Positions 1,760-27,017 of a DNA stretch of 64,000 bases are shown here, in pieces. The stretch is from a virus. Its lineage: Duplodnaviria; Heunggongvirae; Uroviricota; Caudoviricetes. The stretch is from the IMG/VR virus record IMGVR_UViG_3300045972_000219, one strand, 5' to 3'. The position numbers and the translations under genes are program-made. Each line of letters begins with the position of its first letter. Position 1 is the stretch's first letter. Under the pieces are notes generated by a model. It was not told the origin of the DNA. It saw only the letters and a program-made list of their open reading frames with translations, and did not search any database.

Positions 1760-4216
1760 ATGTCAGTAAAAGTAACAGACTTCTGCGATGTAATGTCTGA
1801 TAGCTTTTTGAAGTATGCATTCAGTGTAGTTATCGGACGTTCAATTCCTGATTTTAGAGATGGCTTAAAGCCAGTACATCGTAGAGTGCTTCAATCATGT
1901 AATGTTGAAGGGATACGTAGTACTTCGCCATGTAAGAAAGCTGCACGACTTGTAGGTGCATGTCTTGGTAGATTTCACCCACATGGAGATGCATCTGTAT
2001 ATGATGCAGCTATTCGTTTAGCTCAACCATGGAAAATGAATGTACCTCTTATGGATTCACAAGGTAATATAGGGTCTATTCATGGAGACAGCTCTGCGGC
2101 GATGAGATATGTGGAGATGCGATCAGCTGCAGTGTGTGAGTATATCTTTAAAGATCTTAAGAAAGAAACTGTACCTTGGTCTCCTACTTATGATTCTTCA
2201 GATGTTGAACCCATGCTGCTCCCTATCCATTTCCCTAATCTCCTGATCAATGGTGCATCAGGTATGGCAGTAGGATATGCAACAGATATTCCTCCTCATA
2301 ATCCGAAGGAGGCTATTGATGCATGTCTACTCTTACTGAAGAAACCTGACGCTACTTTAGATGAAGTAATGAAGGTTATTCCCTCACCAGATTTTCCAAC
2401 AGGAGGACTAATTATTAATCCTTCTGAAATACGTAATGCCTATGCCACTGGTAAAGGTAATCTCCGTGTGAGAGCACCTTATGAAGTGAAAGATCGTAGT
2501 AGAGGTGCATCAAGTATTATTTATAAGACAATCCCATATGGTACATCTACAGATAAGATACGTGAGAAGGTTGCTGAATTAGCAAAGGATAAACGTATTC
2601 AAGTTACTGACTGTAGGGATGAGTCTGATAAGAAAAATTATAGACTCGTTGTAGATGTACCTAATGGTGTATCGCCTGAAACAACTGCAGCATTATTGTA
2701 TCAGCTCACTCCATTGGAATCAACTGTTAAGATTAATCTTAATGGTATTATCAATGATGGAATTAAGCAAGTAGGTATTATTGAAATGCTTAATATCTTT
2801 CTTGAGTTCCGTAGAGGAGTAGTAATTAATCGTACATCATATGAACTCCGTGAGTTTAAATCACGAAAGCATATTGTTGAAGGATTAATCAAGTCATGTA
2901 AAGGTATTGATGAAGTTATCAAGATTGTACGTGCTGCTGAATCAAAGGATGCTGCATCAGTTAAACTTCAAGAGAAGTTTGAATTAACTGAAAGGCAAGC
3001 TGAAGCAGTTCTTGCAATGCGTATCAGTCAGCTGACTAAGCTGAATATCAATCAGTTGAAGGAAGAGAATACCAGTCTTGAGTCTTCAATTAATCAACGT
3101 ATTGATATTTTAAAGACAAAAGAGTATGTAGATGATATCATTTCAGATGAATTGAAAGCTGCATCTAATTCTCTTAAACGTCTTAGACTTACTGAAGTAT
3201 CTTCAGTAGACGTTAAGAAGACTGTTGGTGATGAAGCGTTAGCTGTAACTATTGTTGAAGAAGATGTTGTTATTACAATATCCACACAGGGTTATCTGAA
3301 GCGTATTCCTCAATCAGCATTTACATCACAGGGTCGTGGTGGTAAAGGTCGTAAAGGAATGAAGGCAAGAAAAGATGATATGATTGAGAGGATTCTACAG
3401 TGTTCTTCTCATGATGACTTACTATTATTCACTGATACAGGACGTGTCTTTAGTTCTAAGGCATTCCGTATCCCTGAGTCTACTCCTGATAAAGTAGGTT
3501 CACATGCATCAGCTTTCCTTGCTATGAAAGATGGGGAGAAAGTAGTTGAAGTAATTCCTGTTAAGAAGCTTGGAAAGAAAGATTCAGTCATTATTTGTAC
3601 TGCAAATAATAAGATTAAGAGAACTGCAGCAGAGGAATATACTGATATTCGTCCTTCCGGTGTTATTGCAATTAAGCTAGAAGATAAGGATAAGATTCTT
3701 TCTGCATTTGTCGGAAGGGATGCTGATGAAGTATTTGTAGGTACTAGTGAAGGTAAGAGTTTACGATTTCCTGTAGCAAATATTAATCCAACTAATCGTA
3801 CTACGATGGGCGTAATGGCAATTAATGTAGCTAAAGGTGAAAAGATTGTAAACTGTACAATAGTACCTAAAAAGACTACATGTCAAGTCATAGCAATATC
3901 CAATGAAGGCAATGGTAAGAAAATGGATATTGAAGATTTCCCAACTGCTTCTCGTGGTTGTAAGGGTGTTCTCGCTATGTCCCGTAGACCAAATACTAAG
4001 ATGGTTTATCTCGGTACTGCTTCCGATGAAGATAAAGGTTTAATTATCACAACATCAGAAGGAATTTGTATCAGAATTCGCCTTGAAGATGTTGCATCTT
4101 TAAAACGTGTGACTAAAGGTAGTCGTCTCATTAGACTTACTGAAGGTGACTCTATTATGTCAGTTACTACAACAACTGACGAAATAGAGACAGATGTTGA
4201 GGAAGGTGAAGAATGA
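1760..4216 (+). CDS. gyrA: DNA gyrase subunit A (type IIA topoisomerase A subunit), full length with C-terminal beta-pinwheel domain
   Basis: N-terminal region GRSIPDFRDGLKPVHRRVL...HPHGDASVYDA is the canonical GyrA/ParC breakage-reunion domain with the catalytic Tyr region. QGRGGKGRKG matches the GyrA-box (QRRGGKG) that distinguishes GyrA from ParC. RBS AAAAGGAGTAATTATG. Confidence 0.88.
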   Translation: MSVKVTDFCDVMSDSFLKYAFSVVIGRSIPDFRDGLKPVHRRVLQSCNVEGIRSTSPCKKAARLVGACLGRFHPHGDASVYDAAIRLAQPWKMNVPLMDSQGNIGSIHGDSSAAMRYVEMRSAAVCEYIFKDLKKETVPWSPTYDSSDVEPMLLPIHFPNLLINGASGMAVGYATDIPPHNPKEAIDACLLLLKKPDATLDEVMKVIPSPDFPTGGLIINPSEIRNAYATGKGNLRVRAPYEVKDRSRGASSIIYKTIPYGTSTDKIREKVAELAKDKRIQVTDCRDESDKKNYRLVVDVPNGVSPETTAALLYQLTPLESTVKINLNGIINDGIKQVGIIEMLNIFLEFRRGVVINRTSYELREFKSRKHIVEGLIKSCKGIDEVIKIVRAAESKDAASVKLQEKFELTERQAEAVLAMRISQLTKLNINQLKEENTSLESSINQRIDILKTKEYVDDIISDELKAASNSLKRLRLTEVSSVDVKKTVGDEALAVTIVEEDVVITISTQGYLKRIPQSAFTSQGRGGKGRKGMKARKDDMIERILQCSSHDDLLLFTDTGRVFSSKAFRIPESTPDKVGSHASAFLAMKDGEKVVEVIPVKKLGKKDSVIICTANNKIKRTAAEEYTDIRPSGVIAIKLEDKDKILSAFVGRDADEVFVGTSEGKSLRFPVANINPTNRTTMGVMAINVAKGEKIVNCTIVPKKTTCQVIAISNEGNGKKMDIEDFPTASRGCKGVLAMSRRPNTKMVYLGTASDEDKGLIITTSEGICIRIRLEDVASLKRVTKGSRLIRLTEGDSIMSVTTTTDEIETDVEEGEE

Positions 4217-7976: not shown

Positions 7977-8302
7977 TGAGAAGTATATTACGGTGTCCTA
8001 AACATCAGATATCTTTTAAAGGAAATGAGTGCTGTCCGAAGTGTTACCCTGATGCAAATAATCATCCTAAAATAAATATAGAGAGGATACATATTATGAA
8101 ATGTCCACATTGCGGATTTAATGATGGTAGAGGAGAAAAGAGTTATTATAAGATAAAAGCTAAGGGAACTAGAGTAGTTAATATACCTCCTGAAACTCAG
8201 TCTGTAGATATTTTTGGATGCCCAAGTTGTCTTAAACTATTTATAAAAGTAGATGGACAAGGAGAGGCTATATGCCAGTCAATGCAACAGGAACAAGCGT
8301 AG
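7973..8302 (+). CDS. multi-zinc-ribbon protein (109 aa)
   Basis: CPKH..CCPKC, CPHCG, CPSC motifs. Confidence 0.5.
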   Translation: MMRSILRCPKHQISFKGNECCPKCYPDANNHPKINIERIHIMKCPHCGFNDGRGEKSYYKIKAKGTRVVNIPPETQSVDIFGCPSCLKLFIKVDGQGEAICQSMQQEQA

Positions 8303-9237
8303 TATTTTCTAGCGGTAATGTTAATAATGGTTATTGGATCCAATCATCCGAGTACACATCTTCATCTGGAACTGGCGTGAATATTATTAGCCATCCTATG
8401 ACTAGTGTAAGCTTTAATCAGAGTGATGACGATGATGAATCAGGTCTTAAACCAACAAAGGGTATTCACCCTAAATTGATATTTAAGTATACTAAGTCTA
8501 GACTTACAAAGCCTGATTTAGATACACTTAAACAGAATTTATCTAAGCTCCGACCTATGATTGTATCAGCTGATATAATGGGTCAACGTGTTTTGTTCGA
8601 AGAGTTATCACAGCAGTTAGCAGTGTGTGTAAAAGAACAAGAAGCTCTAGCTATTGGATGCGGTCATCGCCTTCCAAGAGAACTTGCAAAGAAATATACT
8701 GATAAATGTCGAGATAAGGTTATTCGCTTCGAACCTCTTGAAAAATTCCCTAGAATGATTCCTGAGAGAGTAAGAAATAAGATAATTGAAATCAAAGCAA
8801 CAGATGTATTTGATGAATATTGGGTGTTATTTATTGATGAGTCTAAACAAAAGCTTCAGTCTAATAAGGATAAGATCAAAGAAAAAGATCCTATCTTATT
8901 TGGATGCTTTAAGTTCAATCCTGAGACATTATATTATATCACAGATTGGATTGATGAGTACTGTGATTTAACAATGTCTAAATTAGTAGGTGAAATCAAA
9001 ATTGACGATCCTGAATTTGCATTAGATAGAGTTCCTGATGTAGATCAGAAGTACGTTGATGAGATTGTTGCTGCAGTTAGGGAAAGAGCAAGAAGACTTG
9101 AAATGACTAAAGCTTCTAACTATAAAGAACTTATGGTCGAAGAAGACCGAGTTAAGAAAGAGAAAGAAGTAGCTGAAAACACTATAGGTAAACGTGTCAG
9201 AGATGCATTTGGTCGTTTTATGAAAAGGGGTAAATAA
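8272..9237 (+). CDS. hypothetical protein (321 aa)
   Basis: ORF track; no recognisable motif. Confidence 0.55.
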   Translation: MPVNATGTSVVFSSGNVNNGYWIQSSEYTSSSGTGVNIISHPMTSVSFNQSDDDDESGLKPTKGIHPKLIFKYTKSRLTKPDLDTLKQNLSKLRPMIVSADIMGQRVLFEELSQQLAVCVKEQEALAIGCGHRLPRELAKKYTDKCRDKVIRFEPLEKFPRMIPERVRNKIIEIKATDVFDEYWVLFIDESKQKLQSNKDKIKEKDPILFGCFKFNPETLYYITDWIDEYCDLTMSKLVGEIKIDDPEFALDRVPDVDQKYVDEIVAAVRERARRLEMTKASNYKELMVEEDRVKKEKEVAENTIGKRVRDAFGRFMKRGK

Positions 9238-12562: not shown

Positions 12563-13132
12563 ATGAAAAATATTGTACTTAAAAACTACTATAATGAATT
12601 AATGTTTTGTATAGCATCATTCATTACACTCATTGTAATCATAATAGAATTAAATGTATCTAGTGATTATCATTTATCATCACTATATCTCATACCAATA
12701 TGTATAGTTAGTATGTACTGTCATCCTAATCAAATATACGGAATACTTTTCTTTTGTATAGTTGGATGGACAATAACTAATTTTATTGATGATGAGTATC
12801 ATATTTCTCACATAGTAATCAATAATCTAATACGTGCAATGATATATGGCGGTGTATCATTTGTAGTGTATATGTTTAAAATTACTCTTATAAATGAGAG
12901 AATTGCACTAAATAAACTTCAAGATATCAATGATGAAATAAAGACTCTAGAGGGTTTACTTCCTATTTGTGCATGGTGTCATAAGATTAAGAATGATGAT
13001 GGTTACTGGACTAAATTAGAAGAATATGTTACTGTTCATTCAAGTGCTCATTTTACACATGGTATTTGCACTGATTGCAATACTAAGGTGTTAAATGAGT
13101 TAGAAGTTAGATATAACGAAATAGTACCTTGA
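12563..13132 (+). CDS. polytopic membrane protein with C-terminal Cys/His zinc-binding domain
   Basis: 4-5 TM helices, then LLPICAWCHKIKNDDGYW...HSSAHFTHGICTDC. I recall this motif type from C-terminal extensions of bacterial sensory proteins. Confidence 0.5.
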   Translation: MKNIVLKNYYNELMFCIASFITLIVIIIELNVSSDYHLSSLYLIPICIVSMYCHPNQIYGILFFCIVGWTITNFIDDEYHISHIVINNLIRAMIYGGVSFVVYMFKITLINERIALNKLQDINDEIKTLEGLLPICAWCHKIKNDDGYWTKLEEYVTVHSSAHFTHGICTDCNTKVLNELEVRYNEIVP

Positions 13133-13214
13133 ACGCCTATGGATGACTGCCATCTTAAGCGCATCATTCGAGGTCTATTGTCATAGTTTCAATCTTGGCA
13201 GAGAAAGAAACTAA

Positions 13215-13251
13215 AGAGCATATCCTTTATTGGATATGCTCTTATTTTTTT
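13215..13251 (+). terminator. rho-independent terminator (AGAGCATATCC-TTTATT-GGATATGCTCT plus T-run)
   Basis: 11-bp perfect stem, then a T-run. Confidence 0.7.
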
Positions 13252-13428: not shown

Positions 13429-13710
13429 ATGAGAAAACGTCAAATTAAAAAATTAAGAAAGAAACATATACTACATCCAAATGTAAGGGTGACATTCACT
13501 GACACTGCAGATATGTCAATTAAGGACTTTTTCTTTAATTGGAAAAGCATCGCTGTCCCTGATTCACTACAACCTCCAGTTTTTATTGAGACACAAGAAC
13601 AGTTTCTTGAGTACTTTGGTAAACCTAATCTTGAAGGGACAAAAGGTGATCATAAAGTAGCAATGGATTATTTATATGCAAGTACTATACATCATGATGA
13701 GGAGAAATAA
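13429..13710 (+). CDS. hypothetical protein (93 aa)
   Basis: RBS AAAGGGGGATTTAATG. Confidence 0.5.
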   Translation: MRKRQIKKLRKKHILHPNVRVTFTDTADMSIKDFFFNWKSIAVPDSLQPPVFIETQEQFLEYFGKPNLEGTKGDHKVAMDYLYASTIHHDEEK

Positions 13711-13711
13711 A

Positions 13712-14680
13712 ATGGTAAGATGCTTCTTTCATTCAGCTGATTTAGATGGTCATTCATCAGGTGCAATTGTGAAATATAATGTACCTAATGCTGTATTACA
13801 TGGTATAAATTATGGTCAAGACTTTCCATTTGATATAATTGATAAATCTGATGTTGTTTATATAGTAGACTTTTCTCTACCAATGGACGATATGATTAAA
13901 TTATCTCATATATGTAATCTCGTATGGATAGATCATCATAAATCTAGCATCCTTGAGTATGGAGAAAAGAAGGATCAGTTTGGTATTTCAACTACCACTT
14001 TCTTAAGAGATGGTACTGCTGCCTGTGAATTAACATGGGAGTGGTTCGCTACTGGTTTACTTCATAGTAGTGAATCTGTATGGGTAATGCCAAAAGCAAT
14101 ATATTTATTAGGTCGTTACGATGTTTGGAATTTTGAAGATGTTCCTGATTGTCTCAACTTCCAATATGGTATGAGAAATCATGACACTATTCCATATCTT
14201 CCTGCAACAGATACTAGACCTGAAATAGATAATATGCCTTTTTGGAGAGAACTATTTGATATTTCAAAAGAAGCTAGTTTGAAAATTAATCCAATAATTG
14301 AAGAAGGAAAATTTATACAAGAATATGAAGCTAAACAGAATAAGAAATATTGCGGAGCTACTGCTTTTGAAATTATGTTTAAAGGATTAAAGTGCATTTG
14401 CGTTAATAAAGCACTAACTAATTCTATAGTATTTGATAGTGTCTATGATCCATATAAGCATGATGCCATGTTATCATATTACAGAAGTAAACATGGGGAT
14501 TGGAAGGTGTCAATGTATACTACTCATGATGATGTTGATGTTTCTTTAATCTGTAAAGATATGAAGGGTGGTGGGCATAAAAAGGCGGCAGGCTTTCAAT
14601 GTATGAATATTCATGAAGTAATAGGTTATCCTCAGGTATGTTTAGACTTTCCATCATGTAGCGGAGGAAGATCAATATGA
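13712..14680 (+). CDS. DHH/DHHA1-family phosphoesterase (NrnA/RecJ-like nanoRNase or cyclic-nucleotide phosphodiesterase-like)
   Basis: DHH motif I (FFHSADLDGHSSGAI), motif III (LVWIDHHKSS) and DHHA1 motif (GGGHKKAAGF). RBS AGGAGAAATAAAATG (internal start of track ORF 13676..14680). Confidence 0.8.
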   Translation: MVRCFFHSADLDGHSSGAIVKYNVPNAVLHGINYGQDFPFDIIDKSDVVYIVDFSLPMDDMIKLSHICNLVWIDHHKSSILEYGEKKDQFGISTTTFLRDGTAACELTWEWFATGLLHSSESVWVMPKAIYLLGRYDVWNFEDVPDCLNFQYGMRNHDTIPYLPATDTRPEIDNMPFWRELFDISKEASLKINPIIEEGKFIQEYEAKQNKKYCGATAFEIMFKGLKCICVNKALTNSIVFDSVYDPYKHDAMLSYYRSKHGDWKVSMYTTHDDVDVSLICKDMKGGGHKKAAGFQCMNIHEVIGYPQVCLDFPSCSGGRSI

Positions 14681-15039
14681 GATGTGCTTTTTGTGGAAGA
14701 GAAGGGGCTACCGATTGTGGTAGCCTCACCTTTCAGTGTGAAGGAGAGTGTGATGAGACAACACTCTGTATAGATGAGAAAATGATTAGATGTAGAGAAC
14801 AAGCATATAAAGAAATTATTAGATCTAATCCTTTAGTCTATAATACTTTAAGAGCTGGTGGAACTGATGTAGATGTAATAATTAGTCTTGTAAAAGAGAA
14901 TGAAGATTACAAGAATAGACTTCTTAAAAATTATACAGAAAATCCATGTAGAACCATCATATTCAAAGGAGATTTAAATGCAAGAGCCATTGATACAATT
15001 GAAGGAAATAATTTGGGAGATAACGACAAATTGCAATAA
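14677..15039 (+). CDS. Cys-rich protein (120 aa)
   Basis: N-terminal CAFCG..CGS..CEGEC..C cluster. 3' end overlaps the next gene by about 60 nt. Confidence 0.45.
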   Translation: MRCAFCGREGATDCGSLTFQCEGECDETTLCIDEKMIRCREQAYKEIIRSNPLVYNTLRAGGTDVDVIISLVKENEDYKNRLLKNYTENPCRTIIFKGDLNARAIDTIEGNNLGDNDKLQ

Positions 15040-16033
15040 TGGGTGTAATTATTGCGGTAGTAAAGATATCCTAAACAATGATGCACCTAATAGAATTCAG
15101 ACTATCTGTGATGAGATAGCTGAATATGTTGCAACTGTTGAAGGAACTGTCTCTATCGACATCTCAGGTGGAGATCCGTTATCTTGTTTCTATGCCGATC
15201 ATCAGTATATAATAGATGTAATGCCAGAGAATGTTCGTCTTAAGATACTCGTTAATCCTTTATCATTTTCTAAAGTTGAGATGAGTTCATGGATCAACAT
15301 CCTTAAGATGTACTATTGGGTTGGGATTAGTGTCAATACTATTGAAGAACTTAATGCTCTTAAATACTATTGGCATATGTTTAAGGCTAATGAAGTCAAT
15401 GTAACGATTATCTCTAATTTCTCCCGAGACAATATCTGGCATTATGATGATATTGAATCATTTGTTATTGGCGATCATCCAATTGATGAAGATCAATTAA
15501 CTTGGCAAATTCAATACACAATGGGTGATAACTCCACTGCAATCTATACTAATTCAGATGCACTTAGTATGTTCTTTAACAAGATTACAAACTCTTTTAA
15601 TAATGGTCGTAAATTAGTAATTGCAGATAATATGAATGAAGGAGAATGTTCTGCAGGTAAATATTCTTTAGGTATCCTTCAAAATGGAGATGTAGTTGCA
15701 TGTCTTTCCATGAGAAGTTGGGGTACTCCTGAATCTATGGGTAATATATTAGATACTAAACTATCTACTATATGGGAAAATAACTTTGGGTACTTTAGGA
15801 CACAATCATTTAAGTGCTGTAAAGACGTTTGTAATGCACCCTACTGTGCTGAAACTAAATCAAGATCTATGATGGATATGCTCACTAATCCTAGAGTTCC
15901 AAATCCTAAACCAAAACCATTCACACCACTTCCTGGAATGACTTGTGTATATGGAGTAACCACTAATCCATTATATCCAGGTAATGTATTTGTGTATGGT
16001 GTTGCAACAGACGGTCCAATTCTAAATAAATAG
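14978..16033 (+). CDS. radical SAM enzyme with SPASM/twitch-like C-terminal Cys cluster
   Basis: CNNGCNYCG is a Cx3Cx2C motif. SGGDPL glycine-rich SAM motif. C-terminal region has at least 7 Cys (CSAG...ACLSM...CC..C..C). RBS AAAGGAGATTTAAATG. Confidence 0.7.
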   Translation: MQEPLIQLKEIIWEITTNCNNGCNYCGSKDILNNDAPNRIQTICDEIAEYVATVEGTVSIDISGGDPLSCFYADHQYIIDVMPENVRLKILVNPLSFSKVEMSSWINILKMYYWVGISVNTIEELNALKYYWHMFKANEVNVTIISNFSRDNIWHYDDIESFVIGDHPIDEDQLTWQIQYTMGDNSTAIYTNSDALSMFFNKITNSFNNGRKLVIADNMNEGECSAGKYSLGILQNGDVVACLSMRSWGTPESMGNILDTKLSTIWENNFGYFRTQSFKCCKDVCNAPYCAETKSRSMMDMLTNPRVPNPKPKPFTPLPGMTCVYGVTTNPLYPGNVFVYGVATDGPILNK

Positions 16034-16043
16034 GAGATTAATA

Positions 16044-16349
16044 ATGTCTATAACTTACAAATATGGTTTATCATTTAACTGTGAGACATCTAGTGATGAT
16101 GATATTGGTGATTGCAGTGGTACTTTAGATGCTGTAAGTAACGATCTAGATAAGATAATTAAATGGGCAGTTGAAGGTGATAGTGACTTTGATGGTGAGA
16201 TATTAACTGATCATGAACTCATTGGTGAAGAAGTGTGTGATCTTGGAGGAGAGATTGTAGCTGTCCTTGTTGAAAAAGGTGATGAAGATCAATGTGCTGT
16301 AGCTGTAATATTTGAAGAAGCAGAGTATAAGACTATCATATTAGAATAG
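16044..16349 (+). CDS. acidic Cys-containing small protein (101 aa), candidate partner or substrate of the radical SAM enzyme
   Basis: Immediately downstream of the radical SAM gene. Asp/Glu-rich with 5 Cys. Confidence 0.45.
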   Translation: MSITYKYGLSFNCETSSDDDIGDCSGTLDAVSNDLDKIIKWAVEGDSDFDGEILTDHELIGEEVCDLGGEIVAVLVEKGDEDQCAVAVIFEEAEYKTIILE

Positions 16350-16353
16350 AAAT

Positions 16354-16393
16354 AAGCGAGTATACCTTAATTGGTATACTCGCTTATTTTTTT
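16354..16393 (+). terminator. rho-independent terminator (13-bp stem, loop TTAATT, T-run)
   Basis: AAGCGAGTATACC-TTAATT-GGTATACTCGCTT followed by ATTTTTTT. Confidence 0.75.
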
Positions 16394-16407
16394 AACACAT
16401 ATTATAT
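16394..16407 (+). promoter_or_regulatory. AACACATATTATAT box (copy 4)
   Basis: Exact repeat directly after the terminator. Confidence 0.4.
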
Positions 16408-20762: not shown

Positions 20763-20799
20763 TACTACACTGGACTCAGTCAGTCCAGTGTAGTAATAA
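20763..20799 (+). promoter_or_regulatory. 16-bp perfect hairpin without U-tract (ATTACTACACTGGACT-CAGTC-AGTCCAGTGTAGTAAT)
   Basis: Perfect inverted repeat ending at the RBS of the next gene. It could be a processing or attenuation site. Confidence 0.4.
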
Positions 20800-21149
20800 T
20801 GAGGTATATTATGTTTTTACAAGAAATGTCAACAATAGGAGTATACGATAATCATAAGATTACTGTATATGAAGAACCATTTGCAAATCCTAGCTTTCAT
20901 GTAAGATATAAAGATGAGTGGGAAGTAATTCTGCAGATTAAAGACTTTGAAATTTTAGAAAAGAAATTTGGTAAGTATGAGAAAGGTACCCATCTACCAA
21001 AAAAAGAGATAAAAGAGTTAGTTAATTACCTTCAGCAAAATAATAAATTTCTTAAAAATAATACTAATTGGGAGTATTTAATTACAACATGGAATACAAA
21101 TAATCCTAGATATGAAGTTAGTATTGATTTCAAAATACCAATTCAATGA
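20799..21149 (+). CDS. hypothetical protein, paralog A of a duplicated 115-aa family
   Basis: About 55% identical to 23119..23466 (shared VGVYD.HK.TVYEE...NPSFH..YK.EWE..LQI.DF). Lies directly upstream of the tmRNA. Confidence 0.55.
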   Translation: MRYIMFLQEMSTIGVYDNHKITVYEEPFANPSFHVRYKDEWEVILQIKDFEILEKKFGKYEKGTHLPKKEIKELVNYLQQNNKFLKNNTNWEYLITTWNTNNPRYEVSIDFKIPIQ

Positions 21150-21152
21150 TTT

Positions 21153-21570
21153 GGGGGTGAACTAGTTTCGACGGGGGACTAATAGTTATAAACACGCTCA
21201 GAGGTTTCTCGTTGGCCTCTTTAAACTACGAGAACACAATTAATTGCCAACGCTATTAATGCAGTACGTAACTTCTTTGCAGCAGACAACTATGCCTTTG
21301 CAGGTGTAGCAGCTGCTTAAGAAGTAAAAATTCCTACAGCTTAATCGTAGGTGGGGTAGAGAGTAGAGAGCGACCTTGTAACTCTTCACCCATCAACAGA
21401 AGAAACAATTAGGAAGAAATTAGTTTGACTGATACTAATCAACAACAGTCTAGAGTCCAATCCGATTTGCCTTTTTGGGATACAGCTCGAAACACTAAAC
21501 AGGCTATGAGCGTACATGTTGTAATGAAAGGTTTTTCGGACCCGAGTGGCAGTACTCGGCACCTCCACCA
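21153..21570 (+). ncRNA. ssrA: tmRNA (SsrA-like transfer-messenger RNA), phage-encoded
   Basis: The 5' end GGGGGTGAACTAGTTTCGACGGGGG matches the tmRNA 5' consensus (E. coli GGGGCUGAUUCUGGAUUCGACGGG). The 3' end CACCTCC-A-CCA pairs with the 5' 7-mer and includes a G3:U70 wobble, the Ala identity element. TTTCGGAC precedes the T-arm as in E. coli. Internal tag ORF 21279-21320 GCAGCAGACAACTATGCCTTTGCAGGTGTAGCAGCTGCTTAA encodes AADNYAFAGVAAA-stop. The T-loop is non-canonical (CCGAG-TGGCAGTA-CTCGG). Confidence 0.7.
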
Positions 21571-23118: not shown

Positions 23119-23466
23119 ATGGTACAGCCAATATTTCTAACAGAAATGGCTACTGTAGGTGTATACGATAGTCATAAAGTAACAGTGTACGAAGAAACTT
23201 TAGGTAATCCATCATTTCATATCAAATATAAAAATGAATGGGAAATAGTATTGCAAATCAGAGACTTTGTAATTTTAGAAGTTAAACATGGTAATTTTAA
23301 AAAAGGTGATAAATTTCCTAGAAAAGAATATAAGGATCTAATTAAATTTCTCAATTCTAATGATGAGGATCTAAATATTAGTAATTGGAAATATTTAATT
23401 GATGCATGGAATAGAAATAATCCTAAATATAAAATATCTACAAGCACACAACTACCAATTTATTAA
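23119..23466 (+). CDS. hypothetical protein, paralog B of the 115-aa family
   Basis: See 20799..21149. RBS AAAGGAAAATTTATG. Confidence 0.55.
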   Translation: MVQPIFLTEMATVGVYDSHKVTVYEETLGNPSFHIKYKNEWEIVLQIRDFVILEVKHGNFKKGDKFPRKEYKDLIKFLNSNDEDLNISNWKYLIDAWNRNNPKYKISTSTQLPIY

Positions 23467-24133: not shown

Positions 24134-24328
24134 ATGCAACCACATCAAGAAAGAGTAGTTCAAGAGAAAGAGGAACTTGATAAAAAAGCTAATGCATTAA
24201 GTGATTTTATAGGGAATAGTCCAATTTTCGAAACAATTGATCCTGAAGAACAAGAACGACTTAAAGAACAAAATGATATCATGTGGCAATACTCTGAAGT
24301 ACTTGGTAAGCGTATTGCAGCTTTCTAA
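24134..24328 (+). CDS. hypothetical protein (64 aa)
   Basis: RBS AAAAGGAGGTTCTAATG. Confidence 0.5.
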   Translation: MQPHQERVVQEKEELDKKANALSDFIGNSPIFETIDPEEQERLKEQNDIMWQYSEVLGKRIAAF

Positions 24329-25029: not shown

Positions 25030-26183
25030 TCAATAAAAAATTATTAACATAAAATTACATAACTCAGATTGACCCATGAGTACGGTTTTCTTTCGGGAAG
25101 ACAGTGCAATAATGGGGTGTCATGGGGGGGCAGGTTTCATGTCCTCGTTGGAGGTAAACCAACGGAAGAATAACTCTAGTAATAGAGATAAAAGATTTCT
25201 ATGATCCATAAGTAGAGTCTGGTGAGAAATATGCTATCCATTGTGAATGCACTCACTTCAATTGAAAACCATTAATACACAATATTCTTGGGCGGAGGAA
25301 ACCCTAAAGGCTTCCAAAGAGAATATTACTTGGTATGAAGGTCGCATACTGAGTTGAGTCGAAAGACAATAGAATGTATTAATGCTTGTAATGTGCAATG
25401 GACTAGTCATCCGGAGTGCGTACATGAGTTATCGGTTATCCCTATTGCGTTTGCCAAAGCGCACCTAGATTGGCATCTAGGTCAAGAAATTGGTGGGAAA
25501 TGACTAAATACAGTAAGTATCCTTGACAGGAGAAAACAGAAGGGTGACGCATCTAAACTACTCAAAAGGTAGCATGATGACAACGTCAACCTCATCCTTC
25601 ATCAAACGACTAATGGATAAATTCTATTATAATCATTGGATCTGAAATCCAAACTATATGAGATGATATCTATAAAAGCAAAAGTGTTGACGGCATTTGA
25701 ACTAAAATGAACTTATTCCTCTGTAATATGGGGATATCTGAAAGTACCGCAAGGAAATCAGATAAGAAGAAACGAGTAACATTGACCTAACAGGTGGGAA
25801 CCTGTGAACTCTGCCAAGAGAGGATGTGTGAAAGAAGTAATCTATACAGTCAGATGCAGAAGAGTTGCAAGACTCTAAAACTTGTGTTCATGGATGCTAC
25901 TATCTTGAAAGGGATAGTGTGTAAAGAGTTTCGAAAGAAATTTTAACGTATCCATTACGGGTCAATTTACTCAGCCCAACAATTAATAATCGCCTTATTC
26001 CCCTCCATAGGAATAAGGCGATTTATTAAATCTCCTTTCCACCGTAGATTAATGGGAGATGAGCACTCATGTAGAGCATGCTACCTTTATGGTCACAATG
26101 CATGTACTAAGTCTGGCAATCTCGATGTGATCCCGACTCTCGCTCACAAGTGGATGGACATCCACTATAAATAACGTCTAAAT
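25030..26183 (+). ncRNA. candidate large structured ncRNA (about 1150 nt ORF-free, GC-elevated) ending at a terminator
   Basis: No ORF in any frame. GC is markedly above the genome average. Ends with an intrinsic terminator at 26184-26230. Confidence 0.3.
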
Positions 26184-26230
26184 TAACCCTTATTCCTTAA
26201 TTGGAAAAAGGGTTAATTTTTTTTTTTTAC
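26184..26230 (+). terminator. rho-independent terminator (TTAACCCTTATTCC-TTAATT-GGAAAAAGGGTTAA plus T11)
   Basis: Hairpin with the same CC-TTAATT-GG loop as the terminators at 16354 and 26975, followed by 11 T. Confidence 0.75.
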
Positions 26231-26308
26231 CGCATTATTAAATAATATATATGTATATTAATATAGTATAAGAAGTTCAAATTCGATGTATAAAAAAAGG
26301 AGAAACAA

Positions 26309-26971
26309 ATGAAAACGACAGTATGGATGATCATTCTAATTATTATGATTGGACTGATGGGATGTAAGACTGAGGACAAGTTTTCAGGAAAGTACGGTTC
26401 TAGTGATGTCGCACTAACGATTGAGAAGAATGAGAATGTTAAAGATGAATACAAATTCACATTTTCAGGCAGTCCGATGTTTGGTGAGTTTGATGTACTT
26501 GTCAATGTGAAAACAGATGGAACTGCACATTACGTTATGAAAGATCATTACATAATTGACAGTGGAAAAGAGACTAAGAATAAATGTGAACTTGATATCA
26601 AGTTCTTCAATGACACAGTAACAATAAAAGAAGAGCCATGCGGTATATACACAGTTGATGGTGTATATAAAAAAGAAAACGTCCAATCATCAAATGCTCA
26701 GACAGCGAATACAGTTAAACCAGTAGCTAAAACAGAAGCTCCAAAGAGCACTGAAGTTGAACAGAAGATCATATTTCAAACCAACAGTATACAGTATGAT
26801 AAATCTGTATACAATCCAGCAGTAGAGTGTAACAGAGAGTGTAACAAAGTATCCGAAAAAGTAGTAGATTATACATCACAAGGATGGAAAGTAGTTTCTT
26901 CAGTACCACGTACGCAAGCAGTTGCTACATGGTGTAAATGTGACGGAGTTGAGTATATAGTATCGAAATGA
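26309..26971 (+). CDS. secreted lipoprotein (220 aa)
   Basis: Signal peptide with lipobox LMGC. RBS AAAAAGGAGAAACAAATG. Last gene of the plus-strand arm. Confidence 0.55.
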   Translation: MKTTVWMIILIIMIGLMGCKTEDKFSGKYGSSDVALTIEKNENVKDEYKFTFSGSPMFGEFDVLVNVKTDGTAHYVMKDHYIIDSGKETKNKCELDIKFFNDTVTIKEEPCGIYTVDGVYKKENVQSSNAQTANTVKPVAKTEAPKSTEVEQKIIFQTNSIQYDKSVYNPAVECNRECNKVSEKVVDYTSQGWKVVSSVPRTQAVATWCKCDGVEYIVSK

Positions 26972-26974
26972 AAA

Positions 26975-27017
26975 TAACCCTCATTCCTTAATTGGAATGA
27001 GGGTTATTTTTTTTTTA
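26975..27017. terminator. bidirectional intrinsic terminator at the convergence of the plus and minus arms
   Basis: ATAACCCTCATTCC-TTAATT-GGAATGAGGGTTAT is a 14-bp stem flanked by AAAA on the left and T9 on the right. The stop codon of minus-strand ORF 27015..27266 lies in the T-run. Confidence 0.7.

Follow-up and report, generated by a model that had tools for sequence, protein, structure and literature searches.

This report concerns a 64-kb stretch of DNA (64,000 nucleotides, referred to throughout as the window) from a tailed virus of the class Caudoviricetes, IMG/VR record IMGVR_UViG_3300045972_000219, and in particular a gene in it for a radical S-adenosylmethionine (SAM) enzyme that ends in a tail of tyrosine-centred repeats, for which a role as the enzyme's own substrate is considered. 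The gene is the fourth of five that lie between two strong intrinsic terminators and form one co-transcribed unit, encoding in order a basic 93-aa protein (p93), a DHH/DHHA1 phosphoesterase, a 120-aa protein (p120), the radical SAM/SPASM-type enzyme and a 101-aa protein (p101) (Table 1). Shine-Dalgarno sites are good in all five. A preliminary description, made from the letters of the window alone, had recognized the last four open reading frames (ORFs), each of which was recovered with the same boundaries, and had seen them as a four-gene unit closed by a terminator. The terminator is upheld by its folding statistics, even though a simple consensus scan missed the hairpin; the gene count is not, since the upstream terminator and the gene for p93 that follows it make the unit one of five genes. 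The Cys-rich character given to p120 and the acidic, Cys-containing character given to p101 were likewise correct. Searches of Pfam and PHROG returned no match for p93, and neither p120 nor p101 matched a family in Pfam, PHROG, NCBIfam or the PADLOC and anti-defence models, or a sequence in the deposited phages (by tblastn for p101). At one end the p120 gene overlaps the DHH stop codon (ATGA), and at the other it shares 62 nt with the start of the radical SAM gene.

Table 1. Genes and features of the five-gene unit (positions are those of the window)
Feature	Position	Strand	Particulars
Upstream intrinsic terminator, bidirectional	13214..13243	.	12-bp stem with 5 GC pairs, then a T-run
p93, basic 93-aa protein, first gene of the unit	13429..13710	+	ORF with AAAGGGGGA Shine-Dalgarno; also a called gene in contig L022 of the same phage
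DHH/DHHA1 phosphoesterase, 322 aa	13712..14680	+	phrog_4771 'DHH phosphoesterase', 5e-35; catalytic motifs invariant
p120, Cys-rich 120-aa protein	14677..15039	+	8 Cys; N-terminal CxxC...CxxxC
Radical SAM enzyme, truncated SPASM/twitch-like domain plus C-terminal repeat tail, 351 aa	14978..16033	+	
CX3CX2C motif (C19, C23, C26), radical SAM [4Fe-4S]	15032..15055	+	Invariant in 118 sequences
Auxiliary-cluster region, five conserved Cys	15647..15832	+	C224-x12-G237-x4-C242 and C280-C281-x3-C285 (two alignments)
Pro/Lys-rich linker, residues 291-319	15848..15934	+	Between cluster domain and first repeat; family composition P 14%, K 11%
Two tail repeats, GMTCVYGVTT and GNVFVYGVAT, residues 320-344	15935..16009	+	Family-wide motif
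p101, highly acidic 101-aa protein	16044..16349	+	pI 4.05; 27 Asp+Glu; 4 Cys
Downstream intrinsic terminator	16348..16397	+	19-bp perfect hairpin plus T7 run; dG -33.1 kcal/mol, z = -8.8

The radical SAM enzyme is built of domains of known kinds. Its family is a phage-only variant that has not been described before and whose obligate architecture is unusual. The preliminary description had called a radical SAM protein with a Cx3Cx2C motif and a SPASM- or twitch-like Cys cluster, and both parts of that call are borne out by Pfam above gathering, with Radical_SAM (PF04055) scoring 30.9 bits and SPASM (PF13186) scoring 34.8 bits against a gathering score of 21.5 over residues 224-282; the partial TIM-barrel fold of the radical SAM superfamily is also present. 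A full SPASM motif has seven Cys in the arrangement CX9-15GX4C - gap - CX2CX5CX3C - gap - C and holds two auxiliary clusters. In the phage family the motif is incomplete, the first half (C-x12-G-x4-C) being kept and the second reduced to CC-x3-C, so that, judged by its residues, the auxiliary domain is better described as truncated SPASM or twitch-like and probably binds one auxiliary Fe-S cluster. An N-terminal recognition element (RRE, PqqD-like) of the sort used by enzymes that act on peptides made by the ribosome and modified after translation (RiPPs) was found neither in the alignment nor in the AlphaFold 2 (AF2) model, because residue 10 is where the catalytic core begins. The best matches by fold are all enzymes that modify peptides or proteins, namely ChlB (20.0), anSME (19.6), SuiB (19.6), CteB (19.0), SkfB (18.9) and PqqE (18.8). 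With ChlB, anSME, SuiB and CteB nearest in fold, the protein is not closest to QueE or NrdG, an assignment that, by the preliminary description, would have counted against its reading. Comparison with the NCBIfam equivalogs (PqqE, SbtM, HxsB/C, the KxxxW maturase, MoaA, NirJ and others) gave 30 hits, all far under cutoff, the best at 39 bits against 425. Prokaryotic viperin was also matched poorly (29 bits against 180 for NF038283, and 31.5 bits for PADLOC pVip over residues 11-125 only). The automatic label 'AslB' that the family carries is uninformative.

The C-terminal end of the protein, noted in the preliminary description as an odd Pro/Gly/Tyr-rich tail, ends in two VYGV motifs and turns out to be the hallmark of the family. 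Across its members a Pro-rich tether of ~35-60 residues is followed by one to seven motif copies, the first motif Tyr lying a median of 48 residues past the conserved CCKD. The repeat unit reads (P/G)-x-[V/T/I]-hydrophobic-[V/M/L/A]-Tyr-[Gly/Ala]-Val-x-[P/T], with a spacing of mostly 10-13 residues, and its core (hydrophobic-hydrophobic-Tyr-Gly/Ala-Val) is found in at least one copy in 187 of the 191 members with a recognizable CCKD, 44 of the 191 having a single copy. When the specificity of the motif was counted with each position left free in turn, 343 of 349 cases had Tyr as the X of hydrophobic-hydrophobic-X-[G/A]-V, and none had Phe, Trp or His there; the residue after it (+1) was Gly, Ala or Ser in 98% of repeats, with Ala in 42%, and the next (+2) was Val in 85%, the remainder being mostly Cys, Ile or Thr, such that a beta-branched residue (Val, Ile or Thr) stands there in ~93%. 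The motif is also a property of the tail rather than of the protein as a whole, with 405 instances of Y[GA]V in the 16,252 tail residues counted and 4 in the 52,159 of the core. The window's two repeats have 17 of 30 bases in common, with the same Tyr codon and with Val, Gly and Val codons that differ at their third positions; because the codons have diverged and the peptide has been kept, selection acts on the peptide, and the repeats are not a recent DNA duplication. The AF2 model places strands at residues 322-328 and 337-343 of the window protein (predicted local distance difference test, pLDDT, 62-73).

At no locus do the repeats have a gene of their own. Three members that appeared to lack a tail were examined, and one proved to carry a frameshift (L033), one an in-frame TAA (L034) and one to be truly tail-less (L032); none of the three has a separate repeat gene beside it, so that no split version of enzyme and tail was seen among them. 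Likewise, no free-standing ORF with two or more Tyr-Gly/Ala-Val motifs exists in the window or the other loci, where only radical SAM proteins have them. At L033 (~2900-3100) three YGV/YAV repeats continue in another frame after the frameshift and a second, unrelated radical SAM gene follows, and at L034 the TAA (2117-2119) has the conserved linker and then a YGI motif after it; these interruptions could be sequencing errors, pseudogenes or recoding. A glycyl-radical-like site, as in the RVSGYAV motif of pyruvate formate-lyase, was also considered for the repeats and is ruled out, for the small residue comes after the Tyr and is Ala in 42% of repeats. Beyond the repeats some members vary further. 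Among two sets of members (P0014, P0016, P0017, P0102; P0059, P0081, P0092), some tails are extended by a C-terminal CxC...CxxC zinc-ribbon-like module and others end in an acidic '...DDLPF', which resembles the C-terminal tip of the bacterial single-stranded DNA-binding protein; P0102 also has an N-terminal extension of ~170 aa.

An exhaustive profile search of 1.84 billion representatives (50% identity) gave 255 members of the radical SAM family at E <= 1e-30. There was no tblastn match to the radical SAM protein in 50,697 deposited phages and nothing close among the viral predicted structures of BFVD, and a scan of 185,579 species genomes yielded three matches, which all lie on contigs of metagenome-assembled genomes, these being a phage-like contig with a tailed family member (L026), a short fragment (L027) and an unrelated enzyme (L028). 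By this sampling of sequence space, the family is sharply bounded and effectively restricted to uncultivated large phages, T4-like ones included.

Gene neighbourhoods were compared at 20 further radical SAM loci, drawn from long metagenomic contigs and IMG/VR and representing ~13-16 independent phages. When the genes at 12.5-20.3 kb of the window were searched against these loci with phmmer, only the radical SAM gene itself matched, all-against-all clustering of the neighbours produced no family common to diverse loci, and a Pfam-based census that took in 96 immediate neighbours at 16 loci had no family in more than two. Conserved synteny of the unit described earlier is thus ruled out, its other genes recurring in 0 of the 20 loci. 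Moreover, p120 matched only itself among 5.8e9 protein clusters and is an ORFan. Since no neighbour recurs, p120 is an ORFan and DHH genes are found without a radical SAM gene, the flanking proteins are not substrates of the enzyme at the level of the family, a role that the preliminary description had proposed for the small Cys proteins p120 and p101; both are ruled out as conserved substrates. The unit in the window is a cassette of accessory genes, unrelated and independent, that does not amount to a conserved functional module; for annotation, the lesson is that genes tightly co-transcribed in a phage accessory region need not work together. A phosphoesterase adjoins the radical SAM gene in two of ~17 independent loci, as the DHH gene in the window and as a Metallophos gene directly upstream of the homologue in L003, and the census holds a second Metallophos hit. 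The idea that phosphoesterases of non-homologous type (DHH, Metallophos) replace one another at this position is unsupported by two of ~17 loci, the PP2C genes seen elsewhere lying three genes off. In L018 such a PP2C gene lies three genes upstream of the radical SAM homologue, and in L016 (7158-8642) a gene with a VWA domain adjoins a PP2C gene two to three genes downstream of it. In L001 (6001-8764), a 161-kb T4-like contig, the homologue is directly followed by a reverse transcriptase (RVT_1) gene and a Gad2-family (anti-Gabija) gene and has Thg1 and RlaP genes upstream.

The reading favoured here, to which a probability of about 40% is given, is that the enzyme has in its tail a substrate of its own, covalently tethered and in multiple copies, which would be modified by a Tyr-centred radical cross-link. 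It is suggested because there is no conserved partner gene and no leader-recognition domain, and the sole constant companion of the enzyme is a sequence-strict Tyr tail. The strict Tyr, the small residue at +1 and the beta-branched residue at +2 fit a Tyr-centred cross-link within the triad, and a variable copy number, which here runs from one to seven, is typical of multi-core precursors. In the mechanism envisaged, SAM would be reductively cleaved to give a 5'-deoxyadenosyl radical, which would take a hydrogen from within the Tyr-Gly/Ala-Val triad, most simply from the C-beta of Val, and the resulting carbon radical would then be caught by the Tyr ring or its phenol oxygen to yield a three-residue cross-link. 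The covalent tether would stand in for recognition by way of a leader peptide and RRE, and the enzyme might act on its tail in cis or between subunits. Both halves of this proposal have precedents, as ChlB installs multiple three-residue cyclophanes on repeated aromatic-X-X motifs (PMC12912966), and fusions of an enzyme to its substrate with C-terminal or repeated cores are established for the borosins (PMC7878506) and the BURP cyclases (PMC10107690). In the literature searched, no radical SAM enzyme fused to its substrate was found, nor anything relevant on phage radical SAM/SPASM enzymes or phage RiPPs. A wider claim, offered more tentatively, is that this would be the first radical SAM enzyme to carry its own multi-copy substrate, a single-gene 'autocatalytic RiPP' confined to large uncultivated phages, whose product would presumably be a rigidified peptide used against or within the host.

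A computational look at the tail as substrate gave it no support: AF2, run on a single-motif member, built no strand from the motif and gave no sign of its docking, the pLDDT in that model being ~70 for the motif vs ~50 for its flanks. The hairpin that AF2 builds from the repeats and the extra C-terminal modules of some members would fit a tail that is a binding, assembly or localization module, with a beta-hairpin or meander that oligomerizes or docks the enzyme, which would then modify another protein in trans. There is a model for such action, as anSME acts on sulfatases in trans without an RRE. This explanation is nonetheless judged less likely, because structural beta repeats normally tolerate exchanges between Tyr and Phe and among Val, Ile and Leu, whereas here Phe is found in 0 of 349 cases and +1 is nearly always Gly or Ala. 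The single-motif members (44 of 191), moreover, cannot make a hairpin alone, the repeats match no Pfam repeat family and no candidate trans substrate is genetically linked to the enzyme. A further reading has a small molecule, nucleotide or nucleic acid as substrate, which would suit an enzyme with a reduced set of Cys and a polar conserved core, and with a phosphoesterase next to it on occasion. In that event, the enzyme would be of the twitch type, like BtrN, MoaA, viperin and BlsE, and the phosphoesterase may be its partner in some phages, for example in nucleotide or DNA modification. However, the adjacency holds in just two of ~17 loci, with PP2C three genes off, and no nucleotide-pathway gene is consistently linked; the matches to viperin and MoaA fall far under their cutoffs and cover the N-terminal cluster region only. 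Since it would also leave the universal, sequence-strict tail unexplained, a substrate of this kind appears improbable.

The least likely explanation, and a very improbable one, is the module of the preliminary description, in which the radical SAM enzyme matures p120 and/or p101 and the DHH protein degrades immune nucleotide signals: the genes are indeed co-transcribed between two terminators and tightly packed or overlapping, the overlaps of p120 with both its neighbours would allow translational coupling, the active site of DHH is intact and the reverse transcriptase and Gad2-family genes of L001 suggest an accessory or counter-defence neighbourhood, but a family of 255 members cannot depend on an ORFan or on p101, which is without family match or deposited-phage relative, p120, p101 and DHH never recur beside the radical SAM gene in the 20 loci, the DHH homologues have no radical SAM neighbour in the contexts sampled and the PADLOC and anti-defence families gave no match for DHH, p120 or p101. 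Overall, the earlier interpretation is only partly supported.

Comparison with known systems brings out what is distinctive in the phage enzyme. The 3-CyFE enzymes (ChlB, PDB 9gm3; MicB; PauB), whose substrates carry aromatic-X-X motifs, offer a possible analogy at 12% identity, but in the phage family an RRE or leader-binding domain is missing, five conserved auxiliary Cys stand in place of a full two-cluster SPASM domain, the putative substrate is fused to the enzyme and not encoded by a separate adjacent gene, and the members are phage-only. Compared with anSME/AslB (14% identity), the phage family has a truncated Cys set and no sulfatase partner, and anSME is without a repeat tail. MftC and PqqE differ again, in that their precursors are encoded by separate genes, their operons are conserved and they have chaperone or RRE partners (MftB, PqqD); against a cutoff of 381, the PqqE model of NCBIfam gives the phage enzyme 17 bits, and the separate, conserved precursor gene of a canonical RiPP maturase was not found at the 20 loci. 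Akin in layout are the borosins (OphMA) and the plant BURP cyclases, which are autocatalytic and have the core on the same polypeptide, at the C terminus in borosins and as repeats in BURP proteins, and BURP products include Tyr side-chain cross-links (PMC7878506, PMC10107690). These, however, are of unrelated enzyme classes (a SAM methyltransferase and a copper-dependent BURP domain, respectively) and are eukaryotic or bacterial, not viral; borosins also occur in split form, and no split form was found in the phage family.

As a rule, a radical SAM/SPASM enzyme depends on a recognition domain and on a precursor peptide that is separate from it, and a tether that replaced leader recognition would be a new, compact, single-polypeptide architecture for radical SAM peptide chemistry. 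If the proposal is true, it would also supply a handy scaffold for enzymology and peptide engineering, and one of the orphan radical SAM genes, of which large phages have many, would gain a first function open to testing.

The DHH/DHHA1 phosphoesterase of the unit was correctly called in the preliminary description, as the PHROG match and the invariant motifs attest, even though its Pfam scores (17.2 bits for DHH, 22.3 bits for DHHA1) are both under the gathering score. Its homologues use the same Met as start, and an independent gene call on the same phage agrees. Motifs I (DxD), II (D), III (DHH) and IV (D) as well as the DHHA1 GGGH are all present, and D10/D12, D53, D74-H75-H76, D137 and G286-G-G-H289 are invariant in an alignment of 24 sequences; the protein is apparently catalytically intact and active, as far as its residues can tell. 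The same motifs I-IV and GGGH are found in the nanoRNases and phosphodiesterases of the DHH family (NrnA, NrnB, Rv2837c/CnpB and GdpP). Against the solved members, the window protein aligns by its DHHA1 segment alone (E 6e-4 to 0.03), and in comparison with NrnA it is shorter (about 280-320 aa) and belongs to a phage-dominated clade. More than 2,445 relatives are known at ~45-50% identity, for which the JGI name, given automatically, is NrnB/cAMP/cGMP phosphodiesterase. In three sampled contexts of near relatives (phage-like contigs of 55-95 kb), neither a radical SAM gene nor a p120-like gene was nearby. The DHH protein is thus an independent member of a separate, very large phage family, and an ordinary gene for a large phage to have. 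More distant relatives (~22-30% identity) in two annotated phages adjoin either a polynucleotide kinase/3'-phosphatase or an RNase H together with an RNA ligase and a DNA ligase, contexts that point towards nucleic-acid end processing. No literature tying phage DHH enzymes to counter-defence was found.

The window itself comes from a large, AT-rich phage of the jumbo type (~33% GC), with genes for topoisomerase II, a split beta subunit of a multisubunit RNA polymerase, virion proteins and a Dda-like helicase, as well as three tRNAs and one transfer-messenger RNA (tmRNA). The 50,697 deposited phage records contain no close DNA relative of the window; the same phage was, additionally, recovered in further metagenomes on contigs of up to 171 kb. 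The tmRNA (21153-21570, +) matches Rfam RF00023 over the full length of the model (104 bits, E 1e-39), was not reported by ARAGORN, and sits in an ORF-poor stretch just past the gene at 20799-21149. Directly 3' of tRNA-Leu(taa), a gene at 24134-24328 (+) encodes a protein of 64 aa with a 73-bit match to Pfam PF21825, a family named 'crAss001_48 related protein' in the Pfam copy used and 'Sequestin' in a precomputed annotation; this protein may have a bearing on counter-defence. Upstream of the five-gene unit, between tRNA-Leu(tag) on its upstream side and the strong bidirectional terminator on its downstream side, a gene at 12563-13132 (+) encodes a predicted membrane protein of 189 aa. This protein has a Cys/His motif at its C-terminal end (ICAWCHKIKNDDGYW...HFTHGICTDC), and its sole family match is a weak one to DUF7558. 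Further upstream, at 8272-9237 (+), a 321-aa ORF inside the phage genome matches the PHROG 'transposase' phrog_10081 (6e-21). Few ORFs are present at 24.4-26.3 kb, and at ~26000-27000 the signs of both GC skew and AT skew flip and the coding strand changes from + to -, which marks a boundary where transcription diverges or converges, or possibly a landmark of replication. Finally, the genes at 20799-21149 and 23119-23466 (+) are a pair of small paralogues with weak matches to DUF4160 (1.2e-4 and 1.6e-3), just under the gathering score.

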